NCBI GenBank assembly: GCA_963734545.1 | Contig: CAVTHO010000010.1 | Span: forward strand, 96,001 to 160,000 | Origin: an uncultured Spirochaetota bacterium | GTDB lineage: Bacteria > Spirochaetota > Spirochaetia > SZUA-6 > Fen-1364 | Direction: 5' to 3' | Length of the DNA: 64,000 nt | Shown here: positions 15,001 through 26,575 of the stretch, piece after piece | Layout of the letters: the number at the start of each line of letters is the position of its first letter | How positions within the stretch are numbered: the stretch's first letter is position 1 | Translations under genes and position numbers: made by a program | The notes under the pieces: generated by a model | What the model was told of the DNA's origin: nothing | Databases searched by the model: none | What the model saw: only the letters and a program-made list of their open reading frames with translations

Positions 15001-18000
15001 ATACCAGCTCGTCGATGAACCCCCAGCCGGTCCCCGTGCTTCCCGTGAACATGCCGATGATATCGCCCAGGTTGAAGGAGAAGCTGACGTTCATCATGTC
15101 TTCGGAGAGGATGTCCGAGAGGACCTTGTCCCACTCGATGTGCAGCTTGAGGACCGTCATGTCGGCCAGTGACAGGGAGAAGACCTGCTGGTCCGGCGCG
15201 AGGCTGTTGTTGTCGTGAATGCCCAGCGCGTCCTCGATGATCACTTCGACTTCCTGGATGGCTGCCGCGGGGTTCTCCGCCGCCGTCTCGAGCTTGTTCA
15301 GGAGGTTATCGACGAAATTGAAGGCGTCGCTCACCCTGCGGTTGATGATGGGGATTTCCTGCTCGTAGAAAGGAGTTTCCTTCAGCGCCGCCTCGATGAA
15401 CTGCACGCCGGAGCGGATGGCCTCGATGATGTTCTCGAAGCTCAGGTCCTTGAAGCCGAACGAGCTCCCGAAGTCGGGAAGAACGAGGACCACGTGCTTC
15501 GCCGCGATCCACTGATCGAACTGCGCCTGGTTGTACTCGGTGTCGAGGACCGTTTCGATATTCGACCACTCGGTGAGGTCGGGAATGGTGAGGGAGATCT
15601 CCTTGCCGGCCAGGGCGCTCGTGTCGAGGAGAGGAATTTCCGGCTCCACCGCGAGGCCTTTCAGCTTCGCCTGGGCGTAGCCTTCAAAGTCGAAGTCGAG
15701 GGCGTCGATGAGGTCACCGCTCACGAGATCCAGGAGAGAGAAGGTCCGGTCGTTCTCCGTGGCAAGGTTGCCGTCCGCGTCGAGAGTCAGGGTGGCCCGG
15801 GCCAGGAGGTGCACCCCGCTGCCCGTTCCCGGGCCGCCCGCCGTGAGGCTTACGAACCCGAGCCGGGCAAAGAAGGCGAGGTTCTCGAGGTCCAGGGACG
15901 CCCGGCCGGAAACGTGGGCATTGTTGATGAGCACGCTCAGCCCCTCGCTCCCGGTCAGGCCGTCGAAATCCACGATCCATTCGAAACCGCCTTCCACGGT
16001 GACCTTCAGGTCGGCGACGGCGGAGGTGCCCAGCTCCAGCACGTCCCCCAGATCGAACCCGAGGTTCAGCGGGAGGCCCTTGATGTTGAAGAGGTCGACC
16101 TCGAAGGAGGCCACGTCGCTTTGCGTGAGCAGCCCCACGTCCACCAGCTCGTACAGGTCGAATCCGTCGAAGCTCAGTTTCCCGGCCTCCACCAGGTCGA
16201 GGTCGGAGAGGTTGGACCGGCCCAGGAGCCCCGCGCCGATCAGGTCTGCCAGGGTGACGCCGAGGGTATCCGACGCCAGGAGGTCAACGAGGTTTATTGA
16301 CGATTCGGGGATGACACCGGCCCCGATGAGCCCCTTGCCGACAAGGTCGGCCACGGCGAGGCTCACGTTGGTGAACTCGGATCCCCCGATGAAGCTCATG
16401 TCGATGAGGTCGGACAGGCTGTACAGTTTCAGCCCGGTCAGCGCGGTCATGTCCACCCAGTCGGCCTGCTGGAGCTCCGTCGTCAGCGCCAGGCTGCCGT
16501 CGGGTTTGGTCGCGTACAGCGAAACGTGCAGCTTCAGCAGGTCCGCCCCTGTCATGAGACGGGAAGCGATCAGGGCGTCATAGGGGATTTTCAGGCCGGT
16601 CTTCAGGCTCGTCGCGGAAACAAGGTCGGCGTCCAGGAGATCGGTCAGACGGACCTTCACGGCAGTCGAGGAAAGGAGCGCGGACAGGGAGATCGTCGAC
16701 CCGGTCAGCGCGCCGGGGGAAACGAGCTTGAGGCTCTCCAGGGACGAAATCGACAGGGAGGTGGCGGGGGCGAAGGAATCGGCCGTGATCAGGTCCCACT
16801 GTGCCAGATCGCGCAGTTTCACCAGGGGCAGGTTCAAAAGCCCGTCCAGGAGAACGTCCTTGTCAAACTCCTGCGACGGGTTGATGGCGCCAAGCTCGAG
16901 AAGCTTCGCGAAATCCGCCCGGCCCAGGTTGTTCAGGTTCCGAAGGTTGAAGCTGTTCAGGAGGAAGTTGAAATCCACCGGCAGGTGAAGGCTTCGCGTT
17001 GCAGGATCGTAGACGGCGTCAAGGCCGGCAGGCAGGATTCCCGCCCTGGTGAACTCTTCAACAAAGCCCTGGACGGTGTTGATCCTGGCCAGGTCGATCC
17101 TGGAGAATACCTGCTCGTTGAAGGTGGTGGCGAAGTCGAAGATATCGCCCAGGGTCTTGTTGACGATGGGGATTTCGGTGGACATGAAATCCGAACCGCT
17201 CACGGACTCCAGCCAGTCCAGGGTGTTCTGGATCATTGCAATCAGTGAGCCGAGGTTGAAATCGCTGAAATCAAGGAGGGATTCGAGGTTCTCGTGGGTG
17301 AGAGCGAGCGAAGGGCCGCCCGCTTCGGGGAAGAGAGTGCCGCTCAAGCCCACGCGGGGCGGCGCGCGGGGATCACCGAAACTGACGCCGCCAAGGTTCG
17401 CGAAGACGGGAAGGTCCACCTCGATGTAGTTGTTCCGCGTTCCGGCGCTGTTCATGGTCGGGGCAAAATCAATGCCCGCGCTCTCGTGGTAGGAAACGGT
17501 CGCTCCCAGGTCCAGGGACAGATTTCCTTTTTCTCCGTCGGCCTTGCCTATCGAGATGTCCAGGGGCCCGATGGCGGCGCCCAGGACCAGGTCATCAACG
17601 GACGCGTGACCCTGGAAGGTCAGATGGTTTATGGAGAAGGAAGCTTCGTCGGTTTCCCAATTGAAGGAGAAGCTCAAGGACAGATCCATTGCCAGAACGA
17701 GATTCACCTGGGCATCGCCGTCCAGGACCAGGCCGATGGTCTGGGCCGGCTCACCCAGATTGATGCCCATGGTGCGCTGATAGGTCGACGCAGCATCGAA
17801 GGTGACGCTGACCCCGACAATGGCGTCCGAAGCGTTCCGCTGGGGCTCCCAGGCCAGCAGGCCGTTACCCCCGGCCAGGCTGGGGAGCCAGTACTTCTCG
17901 AGGTACGTGAAGAGGCCGCCGATGGTGGGGCCTCCCGCACTGTAGAAATCCTTCTCCGGGTTCCCCGCCTCCTCCTGCCCCAGGGGGATGCTCAGGTCCC

Positions 18001-21000
18001 GCTCGAATGTCCCTGTCGTCAGGTACGGACGCAGGTAGTGCTTGATGTACTGGCCGAGCTGCAGCAGGTTGTCGAGCCCCAGGAGGCCCACGAGCGAGGA
18101 ATCGGTGCCGGGAATGGTCTTGTTGAGGAACGCGTTTCCCTCCGCGACGACGTTTCCCCGGTTGTCGTAGCGCGTGATGAACTGGTCTTTCAGGTCGAGG
18201 ATCTGGTCACCGAGCAGGTCCAGGGCCGCGAAGGCCAGGTCGTTCAGGATCCCGCCGATTTCCCTCAAGTCTGCCGTGAACCCGGGGGAAAGCTCACCGT
18301 CGTAGAGGTCAGTGTCCCCGAATCCGATGCTTCCGAGCGCCACGCCCGTTCCGCCCACCGAGGCGTAGAGGGGCAGGAAAACGAGCACACGGTTCTGGAA
18401 GGCATTGTGGGCCTTGTCCTCCTGGTGGTTGAAGCTGAAGGCCCCGGCGTCAAAGGTTACGCTTCCACCCAGCTCAATCTCCACCCGGCCGGCGTGGTTG
18501 GTGTGCAGGTCGATTGCCTCGTAGCCCAGGCCGATCTCGATGTCGGGGGCACTGAACGATCCTGAGAACTTGAACTCGTCGAAGTTGAACGCGAACTCCC
18601 CGGTAGAGAGATCCACCCCGAAGTCGAACCTCAAGGCCGTGGAGACGGACACTGCGAGGTCGACCTCGGCGTCGAGCGCGAGCCCCACGCCGCCCAGGTT
18701 CTCCGCGATGGCGAGGGTCACAACGTCGGCAAAGGAATAGGCCCCGTTGAAGGAGATTCCCAGGTGGCTGCCGGCCATCGTCACGGTCAGGAAGTCACCG
18801 CCCACGCCGGTCGAAATCCCCGGCAGTGTCGGGACCCAATGGGCGGTCAGGAAGGACGCCAGGCCGTTCCAGATGTCCGCCGGCGTGACATCTCCCGTGG
18901 CCACCGAGCCCGGCCCGATCCAGGACACCGTGTCGAGGTAGGCGAACACATGGGTGTCGATGTCGAGAAGGGCCTCGATCCCATTTCCCGCGCCGAAGAA
19001 GCTGTTCAGGTCACGGTCGATCCCGGGGATCGTCAGGTCGAAGAACCCCGAGCCGAGCAGGTCCTGCTTCAGGCCCCGAATGAGCCCTGCCAGGTCTTCC
19101 AGGAGTCCCCGGATCACGCTGTCCGCCAGGTTGCCGAGGGCGCCGGCGATGTCGGGAGTCGTGATGATCACGGGATCATAGGGGCCCGGGTTGAGGTTCA
19201 CGATGTGCCGGAAGACCTCCTCCAATCCCGTGTTGATGCTCCCCTGATAGAGAGGATTGGTCCGAATGCTCAGATCCGGCGACAGGGGTATCACGGTCCC
19301 GAACACGTCCAGGGTCAGGGGCAGAACGACTTCCAGGCCGCCGTTCACGCCCGCGAACTGGACGTTGTCCAGGAGGTTCTCCGTGGCGAAGTGGAACCTC
19401 CCGTCCGACAACGGATCTGCCGGATCCAGCACGAAGGCAATGGTAACAAAGTCCGACCGGTCGGCGGGATCCGTCGCCTCCGGGTTCGTGGACGCGTCCC
19501 CGTCGGCGTCCATGGTCATCGTTCCCGCTGTTACGCTCAGACCGATGGAATCGAAAATGCTGAACGACAGGTCGAGGTTCTCCGCGAGCAGCTTGAACCC
19601 GGCATCCACGCGCGTGCCCGTCTGCTCGGCGTCGTTCCAGTCGTAGAGGAACTTGTCGGCCGACCCGCCCGATGCCCGGGGCCCAAGGTCAATTCCGGCC
19701 TCGATTCGAACCCGGGCGAATGCGCTCACGCGGACGGTCCCGCTGCCCTCCAGGGCCACCAGGTCGTCGATCCCTTCCAGGCCGGGGAGACTCCCGCCGA
19801 CGAGACCCTTGAACAGACCGAGATCGAAATTGAAGGGCGTGCTTTCCTCCACGTCCTCTTCCAGCTTGAACCGCAGGCGAAGGACTGTGCCCTCCATGAA
19901 GACGGCGAAAACTGCCCCTGCTGTCTCGAAGTTCAGACCCAGCTTGTTCAGGATCAACCCTATCAGTTTCTGGATGTCGTTCTCCGGGTTGTACAGCTCA
20001 CGCTCCACGGCGTTCACGGCATCATTCATCATTCCGATGAAGGCCAGGATCTCGCGCGGGGATTTGTCGATCAGGGGGATCCTGAGGTCCTTGAAGGCAT
20101 CGTAGATCGGGGAGTTGGGATCCGTGACCCAGAAGGGAAGCCGGTCAAAAGCCTTGAACGCGTAATCCCGGGCCCTCAGGATCATGGACAGTATGTCCTC
20201 GATATGGAGGTACTGGTAGAAAGTGAAAGCAGCGGGGAGGTTTGTCAGGTCGAGGGTCATGTAGCCGGGGGCGGTCCGGGCACGGGCCAGATCGCTCACC
20301 ATGAGCGTGACTCCGCCATCGTCCGACGCGGGGATCCCGCCTATGCCCGTGTTCACCTTGATTCCGAGCAGCGTCGCCTGCGCCTCGCCGGTCACAGCGC
20401 CGTGAAGGATGGAAGCGACATCCAGCCCCGAGAGGGACGAGATCAGGAATTGCCGATCGCCGGCGGTCGCAAGGTCACCGTCCTGGTCGGGCACCAGGGT
20501 CTGCGACACGTTCACCCGGACAAGGCTTCCCGGTGCGTATCCCAGTGTCACCCCCACGAATCCGAGCCGACCCGCGGCCTCGAAGTCCGTCACCTCGAAA
20601 GATACCGACCGTGTGAGGGACGCCGCGTCCACGGAGTACGTCAGCTCCCCTTCGGTCGGACCGCCGGTCTCCCCGTCAAAATCCACGACATAGTCGAGCT
20701 GTCCGGACACCTCGACCAGGAGGTCTGCCAGCGCCGTTGTCCTCAGACCCACCAGGTCGAGGCCGTAGTCACCTGAAAGGTCGAGGGCCGCACCGTTCAA
20801 GCCGAAGTATTGCAGGGCGTGGCTGTCCACCTCGGCGTCCCCCACAAGACCCAGGCTCACGAATGACGCCAGGCTGTCCAGGTCGTTCAGGTTCAGGAGG
20901 CCGCGGTCGCCGAGCTCGTTAAGGGAGAAAGACGGGGTCTTGAGATCTGCTGAGACGAGCAACCCATGGGCAGCCAGGCTCCTCAGAGAAACCAGTTCCT

Positions 21001-24000
21001 GATCGAGAAGGGCGTCCTTGTCCACGGTGGCCGAGGCGCCGAGATAGGAGGGATCCACCACGCCCGCCTTGACCAGATCGCTGAACCCGGCAAGTCCGAG
21101 GGAGAGAAGGCTCCCGGCCCCGTTCAAGAGAACCTCGTCGTTTCCGGCGCCCGTGATGACGGCGGCCTCCTGGAGGATTGCCCGGTCGAACATCCGGGAC
21201 GAGGCCACATCGTCCAGCGACCGGGCCGTCACAGACCGGCTCAGGTCGCCGAACCCGACCAACCCGTCCGCAACGAGTCCCTTCAGGGACACGAGTCCGG
21301 ATCCGAGCAGCGCCTGGAGGGACACCATACCGTCCGGTCGGATCAACCCCAGGGCGTTCAAGGCCGCCGTTGTGACCAATCCCGAGCCCGTGAGAGCGGC
21401 AGGGCTCAAGGCCTTGTTATTGAAGCGGCTCTTGCCCACGAGGCCTTGATCCACCAGCTGGGGAAGCTCCGCGCCGTGGCGAATGATCAGATCGCCGGGA
21501 TTCAAGAATCCCCAGTCGATCAGGTCCCCCAGGTAGATCGTCTCCAGGACATCGTAGAGAAACACCTGATGCGCGCTGATGTAGTTGTTGAGGTCCCCGT
21601 TCTCGAACAGGACGGATTCCTCGAGCTTCACGATATCCAGGCCCATGCCGGGGTCAGCCAGGTCGGCGGCATCCACGAAGTCCCGGCGAATCAAGGACAG
21701 GAGCGTCACGCCCTCCAGGTCCAGCGCCACCAGGGTCCGCACGGGCACCGCGGCACCCAGGGTGTCGGGGACATCCACCGCGAAGGCAGTCTCGATGTCG
21801 GCCGCGTTCAAACCGACGTCGACGAAATCATCCAGACCGACAAACTCGTAGCCGACATACTCGGCGAGGGTCAGGTCGTAGAGAATGGAGCTCAGGAGCG
21901 TGCTGAGAGGGACCGTGCCCAGGTGAACGATGCCATCGAACTGACCGTCCGTGAAATGGGCGGATCCCTCCAGGTCGCTTTGCTCGAACACCTTGTTGAC
22001 GAAGTCCTGCCGGGAAAGAAGGCCGCAATCCACCAGGGATGCCAGCGTCACGTGACTGTCGGCAAGAAGGTCCTCGAGGGAAACGAAGCCATCGGTGCCC
22101 ACAAGATCCTGCTCAACGATGTACTTCTTTCCCACCACGCCGGAATCCAGGAGCTTCTCCAGGGGTACATGCCCGTTCGCTGCCAGGTCCCCGGCGTCCA
22201 CGAGCCCCGCGTGCACAAGCTGCCACAGGCTGACGGCGCTCTGCTTGTAGAACTGGGCCGGGTCCACCAGGCCTTTCTCGACAAGGGCGTCAATGGAAAC
22301 CAGGTTTTCAGCGAGGAATGTTTCAAGGTCTATGGGGCCTGAGTCACCGTATCCGAGAGTTGAAAGGGCATTGCGAGCGACGATATCCGAGGTCAGAAGG
22401 TCCGGCAGAGGAAGGGTGGGTACGAGTAGAGGCAGCGCCGAGGGCGGCCCGCGAGCAAGCTCGTGCAGGCTCACCATATCCAGCGCCAGCAGGTCCGACA
22501 CGCGCACATAGTCCGGCGCCCCTCCCTCGCCCTCCTGAACCAGGTTATTCTGCTCGAGCTCCCGGATCGAGACCTTCGCCGCGGCCAGAAGGTCGTCCAC
22601 GGTGATCGTCGCCGCGCTCAGGTCCACGTCGTCGGCCGTCACGAGACCGGCAGAAACCAGGTCCTCCATGGTCAGAAGGCTTCCACTCAAGAGATCGGAG
22701 ACGGCGACAACATCGTTTCCCGCGCTGTCCTGTGTCACCAGCCCGTCCAGGAGGGCCAGCTCGAGGAGGTCCGACTCAAGGAGAGCCTGCCGGTCCAGGC
22801 TGCCCTGCACGAAAAGATCGGCAAGCAGCACTTCGGGCAGGTCATCGTTCAGGTCATTCACGGTGATGAGCCCCACCCGGACCAGGTCTTCCATGGTGAC
22901 GGAGGTGTTGGCCAGCAGCAGGGCCGCGGTGACCCGGTCACCGTGACGAATAAAGCCCAGGCCGTCGAGCTGTTCGGTGATGGTACGGTCAAAACCGAAC
23001 AGGCGCAAATCCGCGGCCGGAAGGTCAGCCAGGCGACCGCGCTCAAGCAGTCCCTGGTCGACCAGGTCTCCCATGGTCAAAGAGCCGGCGGACACGATTT
23101 CGGGTATGGACCTGCGTGTCGTCATGCTCTTGTCGATGACCCGGGAGCTCAGGAGAGCGGCTTTATCCGCTTCACCCAGCGGACGGAGGTTGTCGTGGGT
23201 GAGGATCTGGAAGTATACGAGCTGGCTCAGGGTGATGGGGCTTTGCTCCAGCAGCGCACCGAGGTCGATGATGGAGCCCGGGCCGATCAGCCCGCCGTGC
23301 GCCGTGATCGCGGTGAAAAGGGAAGAGGCCTTGGCCATGATGTCCGAGGTGCGCAGCTTGTCCAGCAGCACCTCGGCCGGCAGGATAAGATTGCTCCGGG
23401 CCAGGTCTCCCAGATCGGCGAGGCCAGAATCGACAAGGGCGCTCAGGTCGATGTCCTCGATGTTCAGCGCGGAGATACCCACGAGCCCCGCGTTCACAAG
23501 ATCGTCGATTCCCGCCAGACCGGAGCCCAGGACAGCCCCCAGGTCGAGGGACTCCGTGGCCAGGGCGGACACGTTGAGCAGGCTTTCGCCGACCAGCTCG
23601 GCCACGTTCGTCAACCCCGATCCAAGAAGGGACGAAAGGGAAAGCTGGCTCAAGGTCAGATTGCCGGCGGAAACAAATCCGGCCCCGATCAGCTCTTCCA
23701 GCGTGATTACCCCGGAAGCGGCCAGCGCGTGCAGGGAAACGCTGCCGGAATTGTTGAGACCCTTGTAGTCCAGCTCGAACTGGGTTGCCAGCCCTGCCGC
23801 AACGAGACTCGCCGTGCTCAAGGTCGCGTCCGCGAAATCAGCGGCCTGGACCAGGTTCTTCTTCACGAGCTCGGTTAAGGTGGCGACCCCGCGGGAGAGG
23901 ATGCCGCTGACGGGCAGGAGGGTTGACGGAGTGAAATCGGAGGCGGCAATCAATCCTTCCCGGACAAGATCATTGAGCTGGACAGCGGCCCCGGAAATCA

Positions 24001-26575
24001 GGTTCTGGATGTTCACGAGGGCCGCTCCGGCAAAATCCCCGGCCTGCAGCAGCCCTTCGCTCACCAGGTCCCCCAGCGCCACCACGCCCGAGGAGAGAAG
24101 CTCGGTCAGCGACAGCTTGTCCAGGCCGATGCTCCCCAGGTTCAGCAGCCCCTGGTCGAAAAGGCTCCCGAGCGAGGTGACTCCGCTGCTCAGGAGATTC
24201 TGCAGGTCCACCAGATCCGTGGTTTCTATCATGCTTGTCAGGTCGATGCCGTAGTCGGCGAGCCTGGCCGCCAGGGCGTTGATGTCGCTGACAAATCCCA
24301 GCTTCGCGATAACACTGTCATAGGTAACGAACCCGGCATCCACCAGGTCCCCGAGGGTGACGAGCCCGGAATCTATGAGCTCATCCATGTCCACCGTGCT
24401 GCCGTAGGAGGCCAGGCTCCGTGTGCCGATGATCCCCGCGTCCGCCAGCGCGTTCAGGTTCAGGCCGCCCCAGTTCGCGACGGATTCAGGAGAGAGCAAC
24501 CCCAGCTCGGCAAGCCGGGAGAGGGTGACGAATCCATGGTCAAGGAGGTCATCCATGTCCACCAGGTCGCTGACCTGGACGAGGCCTTCCTCGACCAGGA
24601 GGTCCACGTTGACCCAGCCCAGGGCGTCCAGATCGCGAAGCCCCAGCTGGTCCAGCTCAACGTCGAAAGCCAGGGGAAGAGTGAGCGCCTGGGCGGCAGG
24701 ATCGTATGTGGCGGCTTCCCCCGACTTGAGGAGACCGGACGCATCCACGGCAGCCACGAAGTCCTGGAGTGTCTCGACGCCCTCGATATCGAGCTTCGAG
24801 AGCATCGCCGCTTCAAAAGCCGCGCCGAGATCAACCACCTCGGACAAGGAGCGGCCCAGGAACGGCACGGCGACGTCGAGCCCGGCGGAGCCGGCAGAGG
24901 CATCCAGCCAATCCAGGAAATCCGCGATGCCGCCAACTGCCGCGGAAAGGTCGAACCTGCCGAGGCTCGCAAGCTGGGCAAAGTCTCCGGAACCTGTGAT
25001 GGCGGGATCAGCCCCGCCGAAGAGCGTCCCGCTCACATGGATGGTCGGCCGCGCGCTCCCGCCGCCCGTGACGTCGGCCTGGTCCGCCAGTGCCGCGTAC
25101 ATCGGGAGGACAACGTCGAGGGTGTTGGCGGTGAGGCCAAAGGGATTCGACGTGACTGCGCTCGGCGTGAATACGAATTGATCTCCGCTCAGCGCAACAT
25201 CACCGCACACGTTCAGGGTCGCTGTTCCCAGGGTGCTGCCGACGCCTCGTCTCCCGACACTCGTCTCCAATGTTCCCACCCGGGCAGCGGAAAGCAGCTC
25301 CGTTGCACTCGCCCCGGAATCAATGTGCAGCCCGGTGAGGATGAACTGCGTCCCGCCGCCGGCCAGGTCCACCTGCAGCGTGAAGTCCACGTCACTGTCT
25401 CCGACAATCGGAACGGCGATTGTTCCTGTCAGGTCCAGCCCCAGTGCCTCGCCATAGCGGCTCAAGTCAAGGACAAGCTCTTCGTTCTTGATGCTCAAGT
25501 CCGTGCCGGTGAAGTGGATGCTGAGCCGGCCGTCGCTGACCCCTACAGTGATTGTCTTCGTGCTGTTGGAGAGGGTCGGGAGCCAGTTCGTTTCCAGATG
25601 GAGCTTCAAGCCGCTCAAGGTGGGCACGCCGCCCGTTGCGATGTAGTCACCGGCCGGAAGGAGACCGGCCGCGGCGCCCTCCCCGGCAGGATGCAGATAA
25701 GGTCTCAGGTAGGATTGAACGTAGTCACCGATGGACAACAGATTGTCCATCTGGGCCAGCTCGCTGAGGGAGAGACCGACCCCCGGGATCTCCCGCGTCA
25801 AAGCCTCGTCGCCGCGCGCATTTACCCCGAGGGCGGTCACGAATTGCCCCAGGGACTCGATGTACGTGGCCATCCTGGTCAGTCCTATCTCAGCCGGCCG
25901 GAACTTGACCACCAGGCTCTCGCCGACAGCCGGAATGACCTTGACGTCCGCGGAAGGCACGGCGCTGCGAACGGACAACGCAAGGGACTCGTCCTTGACC
26001 AGGACCTGGGCTACTGTTGCCCCGCCGGCTCCCCCGCTCAAGGCAGATATGAAGGACGCCTTGACGGCGGCATCGGTTACGCCAATCGTCTGGAATTCCA
26101 CGGTCAGTCCGGGCTGGGACTTGAACCCCGCAAGCTCGTCCCCCGCAGAATCGGTCTGCGCCAGGCTGCTGACTCTCAGTATCGTGGCATGGTACACCGT
26201 CGCTGCTGCTTCGAAGGCGCTGTTCAGCCAGTGCACACCGTATCCCGAAGCGCCGGCGCTCACGGTATGGCCCGACGGCGAGATGGCAACCCAACGGGGA
26301 GCGTTGACGTGGTTGAACCACTCCACGGTCAACAGGGCGTCCAGCGAAAGCCTGTACTGCGAATAGTCGGTGGGGTCAGCGGGGAAATCCAGCTGAATGC
26401 CGATGGCCCGCTGGAACGCGGCAAAAGAGGACGCTGTCAGGTCCTGGAAGATGCCGTCCACCTCGAGGAAGTTCCCCTGGTGGTCCCGGTACCCCAGGTA
26501 GTTGAGCCTTTGCTGGATCTTGGCGACCTGGAGCGGGGTCAACTGAGAGATCTGCTCCGGGCCGTCGATGGCCAT
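2..26575 (-). CDS. Giant secreted/surface repeat protein, main body (at least 8,858 codons, 3' end beyond the window start); RTX and haemagglutinin-like adhesin
   Basis: Manual translation of the minus frame from ATG 26575 (MAIDGPEQISQLTPLQVAKIQQRLNYLGY...) to the window edge (...HLHYKKLFDLRFLSGF...). The ORF track has no minus-strand ORF in this frame anywhere in 1-26.6 kb, as expected if no stop occurs. All long plus-strand shadow ORFs (170, 818, 2771, 6359, 9098, 15215, 17294, 18764, 20966, 22463, 24536) are in register with it. The nearest upstream in-frame stop is TAG at 26648-26650. Confidence 0.93.
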   Translation of the reverse strand, partial: MAIDGPEQISQLTPLQVAKIQQRLNYLGYRDHQGNFLEVDGIFQDLTASSFAAFQRAIGIQLDFPADPTDYSQYRLSLDALLTVEWFNHVNAPRWVAISPSGHTVSAGASGYGVHWLNSAFEAAATVYHATILRVSSLAQTDSAGDELAGFKSQPGLTVEFQTIGVTDAAVKASFISALSGGAGGATVAQVLVKDESLALSVRSAVPSADVKVIPAVGESLVVKFRPAEIGLTRMATYIESLGQFVTALGVNARGDEALTREIPGVGLSLSELAQMDNLLSIGDYVQSYLRPYLHPAGEGAAAGLLPAGDYIATGGVPTLSGLKLHLETNWLPTLSNSTKTITVGVSDGRLSIHFTGTDLSIKNEELVLDLSRYGEALGLDLTGTIAVPIVGDSDVDFTLQVDLAGGGTQFILTGLHIDSGASATELLSAARVGTLETSVGRRGVGSTLGTATLNVCGDVALSGDQFVFTPSAVTSNPFGLTANTLDVVLPMYAALADQADVTGGGSARPTIHVSGTLFGGADPAITGSGDFAQLASLGRFDLSAAVGGIADFLDWLDASAGSAGLDVAVPFLGRSLSEVVDLGAAFEAAMLSKLDIEGVETLQDFVAAVDASGLLKSGEAATYDPAAQALTLPLAFDVELDQLGLRDLDALGWVNVDLLVEEGLVQVSDLVDMDDLLDHGFVTLSRLAELGLLSPESVANWGGLNLNALADAGIIGTRSLASYGSTVDMDELIDSGLVTLGDLVDAGFVTYDSVIAKLGFVSDINALAARLADYGIDLTSMIETTDLVDLQNLLSSGVTSLGSLFDQGLLNLGSIGLDKLSLTELLSSGVVALGDLVSEGLLQAGDFAGAALVNIQNLISGAAVQLNDLVREGLIAASDFTPSTLLPVSGILSRGVATLTELVKKNLVQAADFADATLSTASLVAAGLATQFELDYKGLNNSGSVSLHALAASGVITLEELIGAGFVSAGNLTLSQLSLSSLLGSGLTNVAELVGESLLNVSALATESLDLGAVLGSGLAGIDDLVNAGLVGISALNIEDIDLSALVDSGLADLGDLARSNLILPAEVLLDKLRTSDIMAKASSLFTAITAHGGLIGPGSIIDLGALLEQSPITLSQLVYFQILTHDNLRPLGEADKAALLSSRVIDKSMTTRRSIPEIVSAGSLTMGDLVDQGLLERGRLADLPAADLRLFGFDRTITEQLDGLGFIRHGDRVTAALLLANTSVTMEDLVRVGLITVNDLNDDLPEVLLADLFVQGSLDRQALLESDLLELALLDGLVTQDSAGNDVVAVSDLLSGSLLTMEDLVSAGLVTADDVDLSAATITVDDLLAAAKVSIRELEQNNLVQEGEGGAPDYVRVSDLLALDMVSLHELARGPPSALPLLVPTLPLPDLLTSDIVARNALSTLGYGDSGPIDLETFLAENLVSIDALVEKGLVDPAQFYKQSAVSLWQLVHAGLVDAGDLAANGHVPLEKLLDSGVVGKKYIVEQDLVGTDGFVSLEDLLADSHVTLASLVDCGLLSRQDFVNKVFEQSDLEGSAHFTDGQFDGIVHLGTVPLSTLLSSILYDLTLAEYVGYEFVGLDDFVDVGLNAADIETAFAVDVPDTLGAAVPVRTLVALDLEGVTLLSLIRRDFVDAADLADPGMGLDIVKLEESVLFENGDLNNYISAHQVFLYDVLETIYLGDLIDWGFLNPGDLIIRHGAELPQLVDQGLVGKSRFNNKALSPAALTGSGLVTTAALNALGLIRPDGMVSLQALLGSGLVSLKGLVADGLVGFGDLSRSVTARSLDDVASSRMFDRAILQEAAVITGAGNDEVLLNGAGSLLSLGLAGFSDLVKAGVVDPSYLGASATVDKDALLDQELVSLRSLAAHGLLVSADLKTPSFSLNELGDRGLLNLNDLDSLASFVSLGLVGDAEVDSHALQYFGLNGAALDLSGDYGLDLVGLRTTALADLLVEVSGQLDYVVDFDGETGGPTEGELTYSVDAASLTRSVSFEVTDFEAAGRLGFVGVTLGYAPGSLVRVNVSQTLVPDQDGDLATAGDRQFLISSLSGLDVASILHGAVTGEAQATLLGIKVNTGIGGIPASDDGGVTLMVSDLARARTAPGYMTLDLTNLPAAFTFYQYLHIEDILSMILRARDYAFKAFDRLPFWVTDPNSPIYDAFKDLRIPLIDKSPREILAFIGMMNDAVNAVERELYNPENDIQKLIGLILNKLGLNFETAGAVFAVFMEGTVLRLRFKLEEDVEESTPFNFDLGLFKGLVGGSLPGLEGIDDLVALEGSGTVRVSAFARVRIEAGIDLGPRASGGSADKFLYDWNDAEQTGTRVDAGFKLLAENLDLSFSIFDSIGLSVTAGTMTMDADGDASTNPEATDPADRSDFVTIAFVLDPADPLSDGRFHFATENLLDNVQFAGVNGGLEVVLPLTLDVFGTVIPLSPDLSIRTNPLYQGSINTGLEEVFRHIVNLNPGPYDPVIITTPDIAGALGNLADSVIRGLLEDLAGLIRGLKQDLLGSGFFDLTIPGIDRDLNSFFGAGNGIEALLDIDTHVFAYLDTVSWIGPGSVATGDVTPADIWNGLASFLTAHWVPTLPGISTGVGGDFLTVTMAGSHLGISFNGAYSFADVVTLAIAENLGGVGLALDAEVDLAVSVSTALRFDFGVDLSTGEFAFNFDEFKFSGSFSAPDIEIGLGYEAIDLHTNHAGRVEIELGGSVTFDAGAFSFNHQEDKAHNAFQNRVLVFLPLYASVGGTGVALGSIGFGDTDLYDGELSPGFTADLREIGGILNDLAFAALDLLGDQILDLKDQFITRYDNRGNVVAEGNAFLNKTIPGTDSSLVGLLGLDNLLQLGQYIKHYLRPYLTTGTFERDLSIPLGQEEAGNPEKDFYSAGGPTIGGLFTYLEKYWLPSLAGGNGLLAWEPQRNASDAIVGVSVTFDAASTYQRTMGINLGEPAQTIGLVLDGDAQVNLVLAMDLSLSFSFNWETDEASFSINHLTFQGHASVDDLVLGAAIGPLDISIGKADGEKGNLSLDLGATVSYHESAGIDFAPTMNSAGTRNNYIEVDLPVFANLGGVSFGDPRAPPRVGLSGTLFPEAGGPSLALTHENLESLLDFSDFNLGSLIAMIQNTLDWLESVSGSDFMSTEIPIVNKTLGDIFDFATTFNEQVFSRIDLARINTVQGFVEEFTRAGILPAGLDAVYDPATRSLHLPVDFNFLLNSFNLRNLNNLGRADFAKLLELGAINPSQEFDKDVLLDGLLNLPLVKLRDLAQWDLITADSFAPATSLSISSLESLKLVSPGALTGSTISLSALLSSTAVKVRLTDLLDADLVSATSLKTGLKIPYDALIASRLMTGADLLKLHVSLYATKPDGSLALTTELQQADWVDMTALTGLKLYSLSDLIDMSFIGGSEFTNVSLAVADLVGKGLIGAGVIPESSINLVDLLASDTLGVTLADLIGAGLLGRSNLSDLDLVEAGKLSFDGFDLYELVDVGLLTQSDVASFEVDLFNIKGLPLNLGFDLGDVLELGTSAVADLKVTVEGGFEWIVDFDGLTGSEGLSVLINNAHVSGRASLDLENLAFFARLGFVSLTAGGPGTGSGVHLLARATLTLDADGNLATENDRTFSLLDLVSGDLIDALDFDFEGYAQAKLKGLAVEPEIPLLDTSALAGKEISLTIPDLTEWSNIETVLDTEYNQAQFDQWIAAKHVVLVLPDFGSSFGFKDLSFENIIEAIRSGVQFIEAALKETPFYEQEIPIINRRVSDAFNFVDNLLNKLETAAENPAAAIQEVEVIIEDALGIHDNNSLAPDQQVFSLSLADMTVLKLHIEWDKVLSDILSEDMMNVSFSFNLGDIIGMFTGSTGTGWGFIDELVSAGADISWDAFVEMVVDVGIDFGDIENGNVDFFLFDFEDQGNSSPADDTGTRVTIGLKVEGTNLELLFQPFGIGVRGGSAYLGRLTYGAGGAFYTEGAVVTAVDFATFTLSINQRSGPVADDGRFHFLDEGILDNLDYDLKGGFDILLPVEIPGLFDLDPVHVYTNAAPSPAGYGEQALLEVFRRLAGSPTGTVDAVIVVLPNLELPDFSLLSILNDPGYILDGVDFALGAVQDVLGSNLAVDLPIVGNKLAQAATFIRDLRLGFLAELRAKLERPGAAIQYIRDAIWDVFGPSGLDIVLDGNGDGRIDISDIMVGWYDENGNLLKAWVLGDEVPQESDGYDSDADAIQFEVSLGGIVFGTGVDIPLDIDLPGFGLQVDGGFAVQMSWTFDFGMGLSLADGFYLVTNDTHNPGDPEIEVEIGAFLDGKPLDNAVVTPFVAEGVLLFFKVTARDADRDPAKDGFQPSGLFGFLSIDVSGEPGTGRLTFNRLLSTPMDDLFNVNLGVDATLKLDLILEIEGAKGLPRLRADLVANWGWSLDDGAQEPEIGLNNLRLEVGSFISDILKPIVDKIADILEPVGIVVDILLTPVPGLDVLVDPPCLLGLINKIASLFGYPEMPPAFLYAVQNMIDLTLTVDKMLGTNGDILLGNILGLGTDHPSAVQAENSLVSDFKSFLDDIKNMSLGGETIQTGAGGGTISEQRSGFEIIDYLTDIGNWMKLLTGGDATLLTYEMPLLGYELSFLQQIASITAGPVVINVYGKGGFRITADLGFGYDTYGIRRAIQTGNAWEAFDGFFISDYSLSGDNKGKEKDELTFGIEIGVEASIWALVVEAGLGGDIGFEAGLDLQDINDDGKIRVSELITMWNYTGYDAPGGLLNLFNLHGRAYFEAYVFVDVGVSIPFVGKIMKRVVDWEIFDITLAEWEYKAPKVQPVLAHEEAGTLILHTGKRAGDREYLDTTDGGEKFTVTGDASAITVEYGEWSHRFPESGTGSFTKVIADGGAGDDVFNASGLVGVSVEFDGGEGSDKLTAGNAGGILIGGPGDDTLAGLGAGTTGDMTLDGGPGNDRLTGGAGNNTMSGGAGDDRLTSLGGDDILDGGSGVDSLSGGDGADTYVFATDFGEDTFRDAQGVTVLDFSAVTTGLTVQINKTGITVATAGVELKAGRSNVTRIVLGTGNDIVTIKEPPERVIEIEDAGGASTITFELGRQTSTKADGTIRLLDNDTAFDELILRNIPGIQPNDTLPDILEFNDHEIVSGREIIQFTDGLEQVTLPVEESEIDAAGVTTTHLRDLTIVSTNGPAGVVMGATDLVVTARNLTVEPRLDGDSFVFTAVEDVILNGTVHATGDFDITADSVGTSATVVNGVADAAGTIAHRIDAHDLDWIIRVSGLVVTVPINAINNGRLDIHTANNALPSDIDLRADITSGSGDNSDNLGGGTIKLVAEGSLYMRNNMRFLGAGTHLIIAADDILNYSTGSVNTIITTVAGITVFTRDEGAVAGSEIVIEETDSLVVYGVPVADVPALNPAGLSSAHGIITVTLNGVGARLTLHTGSIITRAPGMDITLTADDFDFLSAPYERDPDPARARGGVIGTGRLFLKAMQATDFILGTAAEHELGNDWTYIHDTYPGFTNFPAHVGGNFTGEGLEATYNNDGSLFANTVHLSTRDLSAIKEGFTLITIGEDYADPLALNPTERMTFGDAMNAAVVKYDGRPRVRDSSFRDDVILNARRIYIEGEVQACATPGQPPVTLEVNTDRLHIKSKNINNPLGGTDSGITGDLLVLDGVRNRMIVDGWLRTNGSIYVNIQGDGESYVSPMMSSVEDDTRRLNNVIQGVAGTIETLLDGGVIEIITKNSVVLEGHTIVRGENARITILPGTFFELVQIAGVISSRDAESLIHIEAPEAVYINGEILAGVEWQGGVKALTGPGADVVIRTPHELRIYGAITSSDVMDLRGAVDQDWNDRDPVSASIHLTGQLMSLADNSLLRLEGPDDIIIEGSIFVRGKGAGLLIDSGQRVKFATSFVEVEDGINVYGRGETRDLDLDLVSSVLVEATAVITSFQNGSDVHIWGAKDVDIFGTVVAGGSIGPCGVIWSGTDSDIVVAAGEQVYLDSGLLASDSVTVTGGAAGPDDVSLGSEGGRVSVIINTAGGITSAGRTSDGSHGLVSLYGESGVEMMGHIYSGASKSLLLDAEGNLIKESVDFDTSVGGDVRIESPGQVFIGGWTRNMRSQVQLAEDVTLFFQDGEGTLLGSITLTKAQTKNNASLAQLRDQLSAALSGMAGGVIDIQIRNSRLVFVAENPFAITADSVHQDLLGLAGGELEANETLPGSSRYEIQALYSLFGDILVTGGYITAKDNIELRNVDTAAHPFIAGEIGVRIQGASEITTRRDYSLISIVAVNDAEIEGHLIAGGEVRNIRDSETGGYIGSELLDFGTAASHTAIRIAAGHQVRIGTVVRAGGLIELTGGDDPAEGDPADPFNFTNVSVLIYGSALVETWGENGRVVLSGPDPIKVLTPTHFYEIEPDTWVKGPLARIVGESDFLLGGVLPVPVTLDLWKRVDGVETTATVLIPGMDVRTEYPVAPDVGIIVHINGLLDASASFGDLDVSWLGRSILIDAPYDFAILPSSRNLDLLGLAPVLSSVIYYLPAEIEADEPLPTGGRLAADVTLDIRMEDAGGTVVDAPSVLITAASTLDNAGLDDLVDDVNAALDAGPFAPINAVLRAGKLVFTSLGYQFEIEKTSQNVNLLGMRYEWETAETRYEAILEAESAAPVTGQLVRDVTLVIRIEATDLEDVLLGAVVVPAAATTDNTTLPELASDVNDALASTLIPRYETEGLHFSHYVSAGIRDGKIVLTGDSAFKIKRASRNVALMGFTPGEDLEAVELFHDARVVADTELDSGVLATGILGGDVTLALAINRLGESSSGSFIIASDGARTGAADLLLDVNADLLLAGFGDIRATLEGNRIVFSSLYDFTIENTSVSAGLLGFTTVSGGAALDSARAPSVHELVGARPVPTTGILAQDVTLSITTVDSADVMISSLVAISRRDTDGTNGTANTGLDDLAADITRALQAAGLDITARYVSGTLVLASATLDIAINPLSENADLLGLSLAAAGGVSQSVRDPSIFDVVPHDPLSTTGVLPDNVELSIVMSNVDPNDDPKTLDPDLPAADPVTGERQGVATGRVVLSRDETRDNAGLDDLVADLNLAFIRGGFKEISALNEAGTLVISSARAFALVGDSVNGHLLGLTELAGVTEELAVRPPPTQRIIPLNSMVNGRLSADLTMELTFDDGMGGTFGGDVIVLQGATDGTQSGTTANAGIADLVRDLNDALAATPVPGLSGEYFGDYITAQDRRGVVVLVGSRVFHLTVELVDHLDQLGFTAGIKTSGLETPGFEITGTTDLPASGILTADVTLALAVDDGAGGWFTATVIVRQADTATNAGRADLLLDIETAFVAAPVFHDGVPTGSYAGQLIVVGNSGDRLLLTGNRAFSVIGDDSLEAGQLGMAAAPGTDVSAVLSVPLQVVAAEAVLPPSRGLAGDVVLDLRVLGTIPSEYTVTVPAAAAADNSTLADLVADVNDVMPAEIRAVEMGGSIAFVSGEVFKIEYSSVHEDLLGLTSMPNDTILANRSSNTGVLPEDVTLVIFISLGERKIVGQVTIPAAATTDNYSNGRIMDLLMDIQNALNSADYYALDGTALEPGYFADDPVTTGGAADPLIRVKLKNGKILLTSQYLFKVLPSAANPSGGAGFQSHHAELLGLDAVAGGAVAVPSRPFNIIAAAAGSEVQFGTPENPVGTLYIAGSVLSNHQISMVKGPATFLDLDWSSLLQTVDGPIVLDFGDTGELKGDLTAGGAEGDVILTANDTLTISGRIKADRNVHIEAGLAAGSGASGNSVVLNPTGYLKTTGPASSSQAIEIVGYNHVIVDGPIGSLQNDEPRMNGDVRITSLHADIAVTEESGWIETNGRIVLTAENLDISGVLKNAGVTAPEPAGDPTADNFEVVLAARDSVSISATGDLDALGSLLITAPTGVLIQGNIEAGGVETFEFLTENRTFLSAAGENVRILSDAITVAGATGTADESHPALPPGATYPLGASIVASSGVALIAGNGGILVARAGEVRTRLGGGVIRLEADYVDVLGGLIAGAERGRTYLGEEPALSWTAGSAGITIVASDLVTFGGVVTSTDLDVVNGDAAAAGEALAWGGSAQATGLVSITVTGGTAPFFSLNEKSFIRTEVLAGGSPSGVTLAVGDGAVIKGIIQSLDPGSDVTIGSGHGLLEISGFVEAGHNLHLTGADAGSVSPVSVLLTKLLNVTETLRVQTTAGSWGDFTVDANGQLINDSGFLIATDAEGRVVVDADGLPVLVEGTGGNPVLGATPVYITHDSAHALQFVDKLGHRMEKKASGRFYRVDAAGQLLDEAGFVIGEDGLRLDQGGNRINQYGSLINEDGSLKDGIAQPGLAPKATTGFVVAGLPERKSGGLLNTGQGGTITIDGAGDLELLGMVGRVHLDETTSLPAVDVQDVILESDAEIYFRGDALANAHHAVAVTGTNVWALDESVVIARGSGSSVSLTASGAEEGEGSIYIARSLIYYFRALIAAGADVTLTGRNIGVYGTISVGEAGGAVTLHAGSDVLVQGEILSAGDVTVQAGESEADGSIVVSQEGKIAAGYGPGTLSGNITLQAPGVVSLLAYDDTMNADLSFAPPYVTYELVYKDVVTGYRMVEAGYILRPVVHWVPTLTTEQTGFDDVKVGSEFASIETRLVQDGYWSDWAGVAESNRFREYFIEGIDFHVADLDWPGKYHPDTDSVYMRDPVSGVRLLVEDEALLYAIAEVINYSGLILDLGRPLAEGAALDAVVLDAQAGTTGGVMNPPLYVPASLMGGGAMSAALTVEGAAAVQDVQLYTAHTYTELHTGLVDRVISGTDDGETQYKGWGDLTDTERLNAIMDHLHYKKLFDLRFLSGFRMTVTLPAAVPMATAASTYSRFDGLTLEQARVLGATEMVSGIL
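3735..8310 (-). repeat. About 11 protein-level repeats of ~100-130 aa in the giant ORF (flagellin hook-IN-like); approximate bounds
   Basis: Recurring pattern GxLxxDVTL...DNxxLxDLxxDxNxAL...GxxVxxS...SxNxxLLG(L/F/M), e.g. GRLAADVTL/DNAGLDDLVDDVNAAL/SQNVNLLGM and GLAGDVVL/DNSTLADLVADVNDVM/SVHEDLLGL. Confidence 0.8.
11670..12010 (-). repeat. RTX Ca-binding nonapeptide repeats (about 8-9) in the giant ORF
   Basis: GGAGDD, GGEGSD, GGPGDD, GGPGND, GGAGNN, GGAGDD, GGSGVD, GGDGAD read in the minus frame. Confidence 0.9.
16100..16950 (-). repeat. Short Leu-rich micro-repeat array B (LxxLxxxGL[V/I/L]); approximate bounds
   Basis: e.g. VADLVGKGLI, TLADLIGAGLL, LYELVDVGLL. Confidence 0.7.
20800..24650 (-). 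repeat. Long Leu-rich micro-repeat array A (dozens of ~11-aa LxxLxxxGL[V/I/L] units); approximate bounds
   Basis: e.g. DMDELIDSGLVTLGDLVDAGFV, SLGSLFDQGLL, ALGDLVSEGLL, TMEDLVRVGLI, SLWQLVHAGLV. Confidence 0.8.

Follow-up and report, generated by a model that had tools for sequence, protein, structure and literature searches.

Array A, a Leu-rich stretch of a giant bacterial protein of secreted type, is predicted to be a folded domain of tandem repeats without significant match in Pfam, NCBIfam or the PDB, which makes it a good candidate for a new type of structural repeat. With a probability of roughly 0.55, it is a solenoid-type repeat of a new kind that acts as a length-setting stalk. One unit has about 32-33 residues and consists of three 11-residue short-helix motifs. 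The features of the protein are collected in Table 1, with positions in the window, the whole 64,000-nucleotide stretch of DNA that was analysed. The repeat region (20840-24652) had been located correctly in a preliminary description, as 20800-24650; the strand, which was left unstated there, is minus.

Table 1. Features of the giant protein and their positions in the window
Feature	Position	Strand	Residues	Length	Basis
Giant open reading frame	2..26575	-		at least 8,858 aa	ORF list, translation, composition, orthologs
N-terminal PG_binding_1-like segment	26393..26530	-	16-61		Pfam PF01471
Domain preceding array A	24653..25846	-	244-641		tile self-BLASTP
Array A, short-helix repeat	20840..24652	-	~642-1912	~1,270 aa	
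Best-modelled array A tile, five units	23450..23980	-	866-1042		AlphaFold2
Domain following array A	19022..20803	-	1925-2518		tile self-BLASTP
Array B, shorter second copy of the array A repeat	15704..16840	-	~3246-3624	~370 aa	
RTX nonapeptide block	11501..12034	-	~4848-5025		Pfam, NCBIfam, motif scan

Overall architecture of the giant protein

The open reading frame starts with an ATG at 26575 and is open at its 3' end, past the low end of the window. By composition, its product is acidic and nearly free of Cys. The score of the N-terminal PF01471 segment, 23.0 bits, coincides with the Pfam cut-off of 23 (E 9.4e-5). No Pfam family was found in the domain that precedes array A or in the domain that follows it. 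A whole-protein self-BLAST returns the identity match only, and internal similarities were therefore taken from tile-against-tile BLASTP. Tile BLASTP also reveals tandem repeats of about 120 residues at residues 6086-7626.

Within the visible part of the protein, whose C-terminus is beyond the window, the position of the RTX block is central. Pfam places HemolysinCabind at residues ~4910-4943 only (E 1.4e-8), NCBIfam gives partial RTX matches, and a scan for the RTX motif finds seven clustered matches at 4857-4963, with only isolated ones, at 814 and 1935, near array A. The premise that the protein is an RTX adhesin has partial support, from the RTX block (residues 4857-4970). Neither Pfam nor NCBIfam detects an Ig-like extender or a retention-module family in the 8,858 residues, and no type I secretion genes were seen in the window. 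According to 10.1101/2025.09.30.679566, family scans often fail to detect Ig-like and retention-module domains. In one ortholog (P0061), the array is accompanied by Big_9 and cadherin-like domains and by RTX repeats near the C-terminus. At the N-terminus of two orthologs, a 'Planctomycete extracellular' motif scores below its cut-off (21.5 and 23.4 versus 25.5 bits). Together with the RTX block, the low Cys content and the negative net charge, these ortholog features point to a secreted context. Array A appears to be extracellular and monomeric.

Periodicity and composition of array A

The dominant period of array A is 11 residues. In a BLOSUM62 autocorrelation over residues 643-1925, with 300 shuffles as the reference, z reaches 12.9 at lag 11, and further peaks stand at lag 22 (z 5.3), at lags 32 and 33 (4.5 and 4.3) and at lag 44 (3.2). 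Secondary peaks at lag 5 (z 7.6) and lag 6 (z 4.6) are sub-harmonics that arise because of the hydrophobic spacing inside the 11-mer. A relaxed motif, [LIVMF]xx[LIVMF][LIVMFA]xx[GNSADE][LIVMFH][LIVMFA], occurs 40 times in the 1,283 residues of the region; 1,000 composition-preserving shuffles give a mean of 6.4 ± 2.4 and a maximum of 15. The other 7,575 residues of the protein contain 19 matches. When Glu is left out of position 8 of the motif, 9 of the 18 matches outside the region fall in bins 3250-3749, which correspond to the second array. Spacings between consecutive relaxed-motif matches are multiples of 11 (±1) in 25 of 39 cases.

Array A has about 38 nominal units of 32-33 residues, 27 of which are recognised by the unit HMM (residues 642-1878). 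The spacing is irregular (10, 11, 17, 21-23 and longer), with inserts of 40-110 residues. Leu accounts for 19.6% of the array versus 11.7% of the remaining protein; Asp accounts for 9.7% and Cys for 0.1%, and the net charge is -120. At the DNA level the tandem repeat is absent, Tandem Repeats Finder giving only four trivial rows. Array A is old and diverged.

These results bear out most of what the preliminary description had read from the sequence, namely a micro-helix repeat of about 11 residues over about 1,270 residues, acidic and very rich in Leu. Its 'dozens' of (T/S)LxxLVxxGL(V/I/L) hold for the degenerate form of the motif, which gives 25 matches when moderately relaxed and 40 when fully relaxed, but not for the strict consensus, which has three exact matches. 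The pairs or triplets that it saw ahead of an xxD(F/L) element and a short strand fit both the 33-residue consensus and the predicted secondary structure described below.

Repeat unit and predicted fold

The consensus of the 33-residue unit is xxVDLxxLLxSGLVTLxDLVxxGLVxxxDLxxx. Profiles of different units score 0.86 against each other in register, 0.66 at an offset of 11 and 0.14 at an offset of 22, and the score is negative at every other offset from 1 to 21. In the unit alignment, Gly fills the C-cap column of the first helix in 16 of 28 cases and that of the second helix in 25 of 33, and Leu stands in the central column of 32 of 33 units.

The best-modelled tile, 177 residues long, was predicted by AlphaFold2 from an ortholog alignment of 17 sequences, with a mean pLDDT of 92.0 (five models range from 90.1 to 92.0), a pTM of 0.80 and a pLDDT of at least 90 at 125 of the 177 residues. 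The model repeats the pattern E3-H6/7-loop-H6-loop-H3-E1 five times over, so that each unit has a three-residue strand, two helices of 6-7 residues and a short turn. A longer tile of 314 residues has the same strand-helix-helix-turn pattern with a pLDDT of 76.7 and a pTM of 0.51. Its pLDDT is above 93 across about 100 residues, and two low-confidence hinges (pLDDT <50) lie at tile residues 59-64 and 244-252. The confidence that AlphaFold2 assigns to regular repeats can be too high, and both alignments are shallow (17 and 32 rows). Based on the DSSP strings and the pTM values, the units of array A probably pack into one continuous solenoid-like structure. Since the models contain hinges and the array contains irregular inserts, however, array A may be several hinge-joined rods instead of one.

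Searches against known families and structures

Known families and structures give no significant match to the repeat. With the whole protein at E ≤ 0.01, Pfam finds no repeat family in array A, and tiles of 147-400 residues at E ≤ 10 give only sub-threshold, chance-level matches to RAMA, Ribosomal_L27A and AF1548-like_C. NCBIfam has no match within the array, and PDB sequences have none at E ≤ 1. When the unit profile is compared with PDB sequences, uL15 (E 0.13) and hsRosR (E 0.42-0.5) are found, neither significant. At the structural level, Foldseek gives no PDB match at E ≤ 0.001 for either model, the best query-normalised TM score being 0.20; the top rows include the EF-hand proteins calmodulin and lanmodulin, which are non-significant (E 1.7-3.9, TM ≤0.2, probability ≤ 0.09). 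Against the viral models of BFVD there are likewise no matches at E ≤ 0.001, only tape-measure-like rows at E ≥ 0.47. The ESM Atlas returned no usable hit for residues 789-1089 or 866-1042, an outcome that speaks neither for absence nor for novelty. A search of the literature found no paper describing such a short-helix repeat, and in a term search the text of the giant-gene preprint 10.1101/2023.11.21.568195 did not mention a solenoid, a helical repeat or a novel fold.

The suggestion of a possibly new solenoid family is supported by these searches, with the solenoid geometry itself predicted from the models. The confident Pfam repeat match that would have spoken against it did not turn up, and the proposed tile predictions gave a regular pattern that Foldseek matched to nothing in the PDB or BFVD. 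The proposed check of the distribution, considered next, revealed a small unnamed family.

Relatives and conservation

Among 1.84 billion cluster representatives, searched exhaustively, there are only 55 relatives. The majority are colinear pieces of similar giant proteins, and a few are FG-GAP proteins in which 3-6 units adjoin the FG-GAP repeats. The only names that they carry are 'hypothetical protein' and 'VCBS repeat-containing protein'. A word-index homologue search with the 314-residue tile at near lengths scored 0 of 8,000 candidates, a result that is limited by the index, and the exhaustive search finds short fragments. A single-protein scan for related loci gave only two loci from 82 pattern matches. 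A 33-residue unit HMM now defines the family, which comprises about 55 clusters at the 50% identity level.

In seven orthologs the array aligns colinearly to residues 601-1917 (to 601-1960 in the case of L001), with 41.6-48.7% identity over about 1,317 residues and only 27-66 gap positions. An eighth (P0007) has 31.5% identity and 248 gaps. In several orthologs, self-similar BLAST matches lengthen the array by a few hundred residues. The columns conserved among orthologs are nearly all hydrophobic, Gly or the Asp of the DF/DL motif, and the helix surface varies. As judged from these alignments, the conservation of array A is scaffold-like.

Array B and the paralogous flanks

Array B has six units recognised by the unit HMM, in residues 3246-3489, and its motif matches run to residue 3614. 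Tile BLASTP pairs residues 601-875 of the array A region with 3166-3450, and residues 865-1059 with 3308-3489. The flanks of the two arrays are also related. Residues 2798-3240, just ahead of array B, are a paralogue of the domain preceding array A, in which residues 473-675 have 32% identity to 3038-3240 (E 3e-29). The domain following array A is paralogous to residues ~3600-4106, which follow array B, the best-matching segments being 1895-2098 with 3455-3669 (35% identity, E 4e-20) and 2252-2458 with 3840-4044 (E 1e-15). Between these homologous flanks, the two arrays differ 3.4-fold in length. The array thus appears, from its sequence context, to be a variable-length insert at a fixed place between paralogous domains.

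Proposed role and alternative explanations

In the proposed stalk, each 11-residue motif would open with an N-cap residue (Ser, Thr or Asp) and continue as an amphipathic helix of two turns, hydrophobic at positions i, i+3 and i+4, before a Gly C-cap and two hydrophobic residues in an extended conformation. The third 11-mer of the unit would be degenerate, forming a short turn with a conserved Asp and Phe or Leu before a three-residue strand. Packing of successive units would produce one rigid solenoid-like rod, its core formed by Leu and Val and its surface acidic and variable. The rod would stand between two conserved beta-rich domains of a giant secreted or surface protein that is acidic, poor in Cys and RTX-bearing. 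It would keep the distal parts of this protein at a distance, and the number of units would set its reach. Array A would then serve as a structural spacer. A bolder proposal, somewhat less likely than not, is that the repeat represents a new fold class, a three-fold pseudo-symmetric solenoid with three 11-residue sides per turn, each side being a capped helix of two turns with an extended dipeptide after it. Its carriers would be a small lineage of giant secreted proteins from uncultured bacteria, in which it would give reach as Ig-like domains do in RTX adhesins.

The unit-by-unit conservation across distant orthologs exceeds what a pure spacer would need, and a binding surface would therefore also fit. 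Array A would in that case be no passive stalk but the adhesive part of the protein, a scaffold with a role like that of leucine-rich repeats, whose long surface binds a polysaccharide, a protein or a cell partner. Besides the retention of every unit's idiosyncratic sequence in the seven colinear orthologs, unit-specific polar and aromatic stretches are conserved (the VSLH and FEL columns, for example), and short arrays stand next to FG-GAP repeats, a typical feature of binding proteins. Such a scaffold is nevertheless unlikely: most of the conserved columns are of the core type, arrays A and B are very different in length between homologous flanks, and neither Pfam nor Foldseek reveals likeness to any binding repeat. 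A role for metal, with the array unfolded until it meets extracellular calcium, in the manner of RTX and Ig-like extender domains, or acting as an elastic spring, and the conserved Asp as ligand, is improbable. The acidic composition, the one strongly conserved Asp per unit in the DF/DL turn, the RTX block elsewhere in the protein and the non-significant EF-hand rows of Foldseek are all compatible with it, but Pfam finds no EF-hand, dockerin or RTX loop motif in the region, AlphaFold2 predicts a confident fold without ions, and one Asp per 33 residues is more simply explained as a helix or turn cap.

It is somewhat less probable still that the repeat is not new at all, and is covered by InterPro entries outside Pfam and NCBIfam, by fold clusters of the AlphaFold DB, by a paper or by a divergent known helical repeat. 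The weak local likeness (E 0.13-0.5) to the helix-Gly-strand element found in winged-helix proteins and in uL15 would agree with this, but Pfam-A, NCBIfam, PDB sequences (with single sequence and unit profile) and Foldseek against PDB and BFVD give nothing significant, the relatives carry no informative names and the literature search found no describing paper. An oligomeric fibre is very unlikely. The period of hendecads is 11 residues, as in array A, and in fibres described in PMC4786415 coiled coils with insertions alternate short helices and short strands, so that a coiled coil of the hendecad type or a trimer of alternating helices and strands ('alpha/beta coiled coil') might be envisaged. 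In array A, however, the helices are broken after every two turns by conserved Gly and N-cap residues, AlphaFold2 predicts a compact monomer with helices of 6-7 residues, the irregular spacing and longer inserts would be intolerable to an in-register fibre, and Foldseek finds no coiled-coil match.

Implications

If the model of the stalk holds, very short helices with capped ends would build a long rod in array A in a way not described before. Catalogues of repeat proteins would gain a class, and the array, being compact, regular and free of Cys, would be an interesting scaffold for repeat-protein design. It would also mean that the giant surface proteins of bacteria can do without Ig-like extenders. 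The unit HMM could label about 1,300 residues per protein in unannotated giant proteins. For now, wider impact is limited by the rarity of the repeat, whose function as a spacer is suggested by sequence and model.

Comparison with known systems

Like leucine-rich repeats (LRRs), array A consists of Leu-rich tandem units, and in its model each unit has a short strand and helical segments; both would form a continuous rod with a hydrophobic core. The LRR unit has 20-30 residues with an LxxLxLxxN/C core motif. The array A unit is different, with 32-33 residues in three 11-residue sub-repeats that form two helices and a short turn, without the Asn/Cys ladder motif and without a Pfam LRR match for the whole protein or its tiles. 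No LRR structure is among the Foldseek PDB matches listed for either model. Pentapeptide repeats have a period of five residues, A(D/N)LXX, and were rejected for array A, in which an 11-residue period dominates and Pfam gives no pentapeptide match. The misfit to the LRR and pentapeptide consensus noticed in the preliminary description is thus confirmed. RTX nonapeptides are tandem units of the form GGxGxDxUx; identity with them was rejected as well, HemolysinCabind being confined to the RTX block.

The alpha-solenoids (HEAT, ARM, TPR, PPR, TALE, mTERF) have units of 30-45 residues with two or three packed helices. They were rejected for array A, which matches no such Pfam family and has none of them among the Foldseek matches listed (E ≤ 10); its models, moreover, hold a strand in every unit. 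Hendecad coiled coils and 11-mer amphipathic helices share the 11-residue period with array A, but are long continuous helices, whereas the helices of array A end after about two turns because of the conserved Gly and N-cap residues. EF-hands and dockerins have a 12-residue DxDxDG-type loop between helices, and were rejected because Pfam gives no match and the Foldseek probabilities of calmodulin and lanmodulin are so low.

The likeness to uL15 and winged-helix proteins is found in the second 11-mer, where LxDLVxxGLV and the extended segment that follows resemble the end of a recognition helix and the start of a wing. The sub-threshold Pfam rows Ribosomal_L27A, RAMA and AF1548-like_C belong with it. 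The likeness is non-significant and only 14-22 residues long, and neither the fold around it nor the tandem arrangement is shared. Supersecondary motifs of this type are common, and it does not indicate homology.

Tandem extender arrays provide reach in RTX adhesins such as MpIBP, LapA-type proteins and FrhA, as stated in 10.1101/2025.09.30.679566 and PMC4083281. By analogy, array A resembles these Ig-like (BIg) extenders in being a variable-copy tandem array in a giant, acidic, RTX-bearing protein, with a proposed role in reach. The BIg extenders are beta-sandwich domains of about 100 residues, often near-identical at the DNA level, whereas the units of array A have 33 residues, are rich in helix, and are diverged from each other yet individually conserved between orthologs.

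The repeat and its unit

The Leu-rich repeat of about 11 aa claimed in the preliminary description is real. In residues 643-1925 of the giant ORF, a BLOSUM62 autocorrelation set against 300 shuffles has its maximum at lag 11 (z = 12.9), with harmonics at lag 22 (z 5.3), lags 32 and 33 (z 4.5 and 4.3) and lag 44 (z 3.2). Motif counts are likewise far above those of shuffled sequences: a relaxed motif has 40 matches in array A, the longer of the two repeat arrays of this protein, compared with 6.4 ± 2.4 and a maximum of 15 in 1,000 shuffles, and 25 of the 39 spacings between matches are multiples of 11 (±1). The consensus originally proposed, (T/S)LxxLVxxGL(V/I/L), holds in a moderately relaxed form (25 matches), while its strict form has only 3 exact matches. 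The array A region is rich in Leu (19.6%, against 11.7% in the rest of the protein) and has a net charge of -120. Since no tandem repeat is found at the DNA level, the array is ancient and diverged.

When the sequence is laid out on motif anchors, the unit is about 32-33 aa long and consists of three 11-mers, of which two are clear and the third is degenerate, with the 33-mer consensus xxVDLxxLLxSGLVTLxDLVxxGLVxxxDLxxx. An HMM refined by iteration over the protein picks out 27 units between residues 642 and 1878 and another 6 in array B (residues 3246-3489), and a six-frame scan with the unit HMM identifies the giant ORF as the only repeat-carrying ORF in the window. Profile similarity between units scores 0.86 in register and 0.66 at an offset of 11, falls to 0.14 at 22 and is below zero at all other offsets from 1 to 21; the threefold substructure is therefore real, with a weak third 11-mer. 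Judged from its residues, each 11-mer would open with S, T or D as N-cap; an amphipathic helix of two turns would follow, closed by Gly as C-cap, and then two hydrophobic residues in an extended stretch.

Predicted structure

Two segments of array A were modelled with AlphaFold2 from shallow alignments of 32 and 17 rows, the latter a clean ortholog alignment. In the tile 1 model about 100 residues form a core with pLDDT above 93, and two hinges fall below 50. In tile 2, 125 of the 177 residues have pLDDT of at least 90, the scores of all five models lie between 90.1 and 92.0, and the high pTM suggests that the units are packed into one body. DSSP gives the same unit in both tiles: a three-residue strand, a helix of six or seven residues, a loop, a six-residue helix and a second loop, then a helical turn of three residues, one bridge residue and a last loop. 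The strand recurs every 27-32 residues in both tiles. Going by the DSSP strings and the pTM, the array would have a solenoid geometry.

Architecture of the giant protein and its neighbourhood

Features of the giant protein, its modelled tiles and neighbouring genes
Feature	Residues	Window position	Strand	Remarks
Giant ORF		2-26575	-	at least 8,858 aa; ATG at 26575; runs past window edge
PG_binding_1 match, N-terminus	16-61	26393-26530	-	Pfam, 23.0 bits, exactly at cut-off
Array A region	~643-1925	20800-24650	-	from translation
Tile 1	790-1103			32 alignment rows; mean pLDDT 76.7, pTM 0.51
Tile 2	866-1042			17 alignment rows; mean pLDDT 92.0, pTM 0.80
Internal duplication	244-4106	14258-25846	-	copies 23-35% identical, tile-vs-tile BLASTP
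Duplication pair	244-675 / 2798-3240			tile-vs-tile BLASTP
Duplication pair	601-875 / 3166-3450			tile-vs-tile BLASTP
Duplication pair	1832-2518 / 3409-4106			tile-vs-tile BLASTP
RTX nonapeptide block	4848-5025	11501-12034	-	7 motif matches
~120-aa tandem domain	6086-7626	3698-8320	-	~13 copies; 24-36% identity between copies
ORF, 986 aa		26592-29552	-	3' end 17 bp upstream of giant-gene start
ORF, 453 aa		31917-33278	-	no Pfam or NCBIfam match
ORF, 883 aa		34063-36714	-	no Pfam or NCBIfam match
ORF, 463 aa		36800-38191	-	no Pfam or NCBIfam match
Sugar ABC ATPase gene		60482-62011

A large internal duplication, which is ancient, divides this part of the protein into two modules that share one order: pre-domain, repeat array, post-domain. 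The two arrays differ greatly in length (about 1,270 and 370 aa), and this arrangement is the chief reason for reading the array as an insert of variable length that keeps its place in the architecture. The RTX block occupies a mid-protein position in the visible part rather than a C-terminal one; the C-terminus itself is beyond the window. Neither Pfam nor NCBIfam shows an Ig-like family in the visible 8,858 aa, and no secretion genes are seen within the window. As an RTX adhesin the protein is therefore only a candidate. The ~120-aa tandem domain has no match in Pfam or NCBIfam, and its copies may be Ig-like extenders missed by family scans. PG_binding_1 is not reported in the scanned orthologs; at the N-terminus, two of these (P0002 and P0057) instead show a 'Planctomycete extracellular' motif that scores below the cut-off.

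The adjacent 986-aa ORF has no match in Pfam or NCBIfam, and it may share a transcript with the giant gene. The 453-, 883- and 463-aa ORFs are flanked by a WYL/HTH regulator and an APH-family kinase on one side and a URO-D-like gene on the other.

Relatives

When 1.84 billion cluster representatives were searched exhaustively by phmmer, with residues 700-1899 as query, 55 relatives came up at E <= 1e-3 (35 at E <= 1e-10, 17 at E <= 1e-30), mostly colinear fragments of similar giant proteins. A word-index search for longer proteins gives 7 matches, named only 'hypothetical protein' (Desulfobulbaceae MAG) and 'VCBS repeat-containing protein', and the genome collection has two loci, one in a MAG labelled Deltaproteobacteria and one in a MAG labelled Phycisphaerae; at each of them the gene extends past the contig end. 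The MAG labels of the orthologs differ in phylum (Phycisphaerae, Deltaproteobacteria, Desulfobulbaceae). For the sugar ABC ATPase encoded in the window, the only relatives that carry an organism name are from Anaerolineae and Anaerolineales, at 53-55% identity.

Aligned with residues 601-1917 (601-1960 in the case of L001, one of the two loci from the genome collection), seven ortholog arrays show 41.6-48.7% identity and 27-66 gap positions; an eighth, P0007, has 31.5% identity and 248 gaps. In several orthologs, weaker self-similar matches add a few hundred residues to the repeat region. FG-GAP repeats adjoin or flank runs of 3-6 units in seven relatives (P0019, P0024, P0034, P0046, P0047, P0048 and P0052), and because of these short runs the repeat is a portable module that extends beyond the giant proteins. 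In P0061 the array occurs together with Big_9 and cadherin-like domains, and RTX repeats lie close to the C-terminus. The Desulfobulbaceae ortholog P0060 has a complete FGGY_C carbohydrate-kinase domain at its end (residues 2366-2555), probably a gene-call or assembly fusion and no real architecture.

Interpretation and comparison with known families

The array would form a rod of solenoid type, built from short capped helices, and would set distances inside a giant secreted or surface protein. We place the probability of this reading at about 0.55, with more confidence in a folded new repeat and less in its role as a spacer. The columns conserved across orthologs hold hydrophobic residues, Gly and the Asp found in the DF/DL turn, and the helix surfaces vary, a pattern typical of scaffolds. 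That the array is a binding scaffold is an unlikely alternative, though the strongest of the four considered here. That it depends on calcium or is elastic, a reading compatible with the distance-setting rod, is rather improbable. We consider it slightly more doubtful again that the array belongs to a described family and escaped detection, and an oligomeric coiled-coil-like fibre is the least probable of all.

The repeat had been put forward as possibly new, and no confident match of the array to a Pfam repeat family was found. Over the whole giant protein at E <= 0.01, Pfam gives only PG_binding_1, HemolysinCabind (residues ~4910-4943) and a sub-threshold Ribosomal_L27A row; array tiles, searched at E <= 10, yield nothing beyond sub-threshold rows for RAMA, Ribosomal_L27A and AF1548-like_C. 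NCBIfam has no match within the array A region, and PDB sequences give none to the array region at E <= 1. Foldseek finds no match at E <= 0.001 for either model in the PDB (best query-normalised TM 0.14-0.20) or for tile 1 in BFVD. The ESM Atlas gave no usable match, an outcome that speaks neither for absence nor for novelty. Literature searches found no description of such a repeat, and the terms solenoid, helical repeat and novel fold are absent from the text of the giant-gene preprint.

Searched against PDB sequences, the 33-position unit profile is closest to uL15 (E 0.13) and a winged-helix protein (E 0.42-0.5). Homology to either is rejected at these E values and spans of 14-22 residues; the likeness is a local one of helix, Gly and strand. 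A helix-rich extender would be unusual among RTX adhesins, as first suggested, and this agrees with the published passages on such adhesins.
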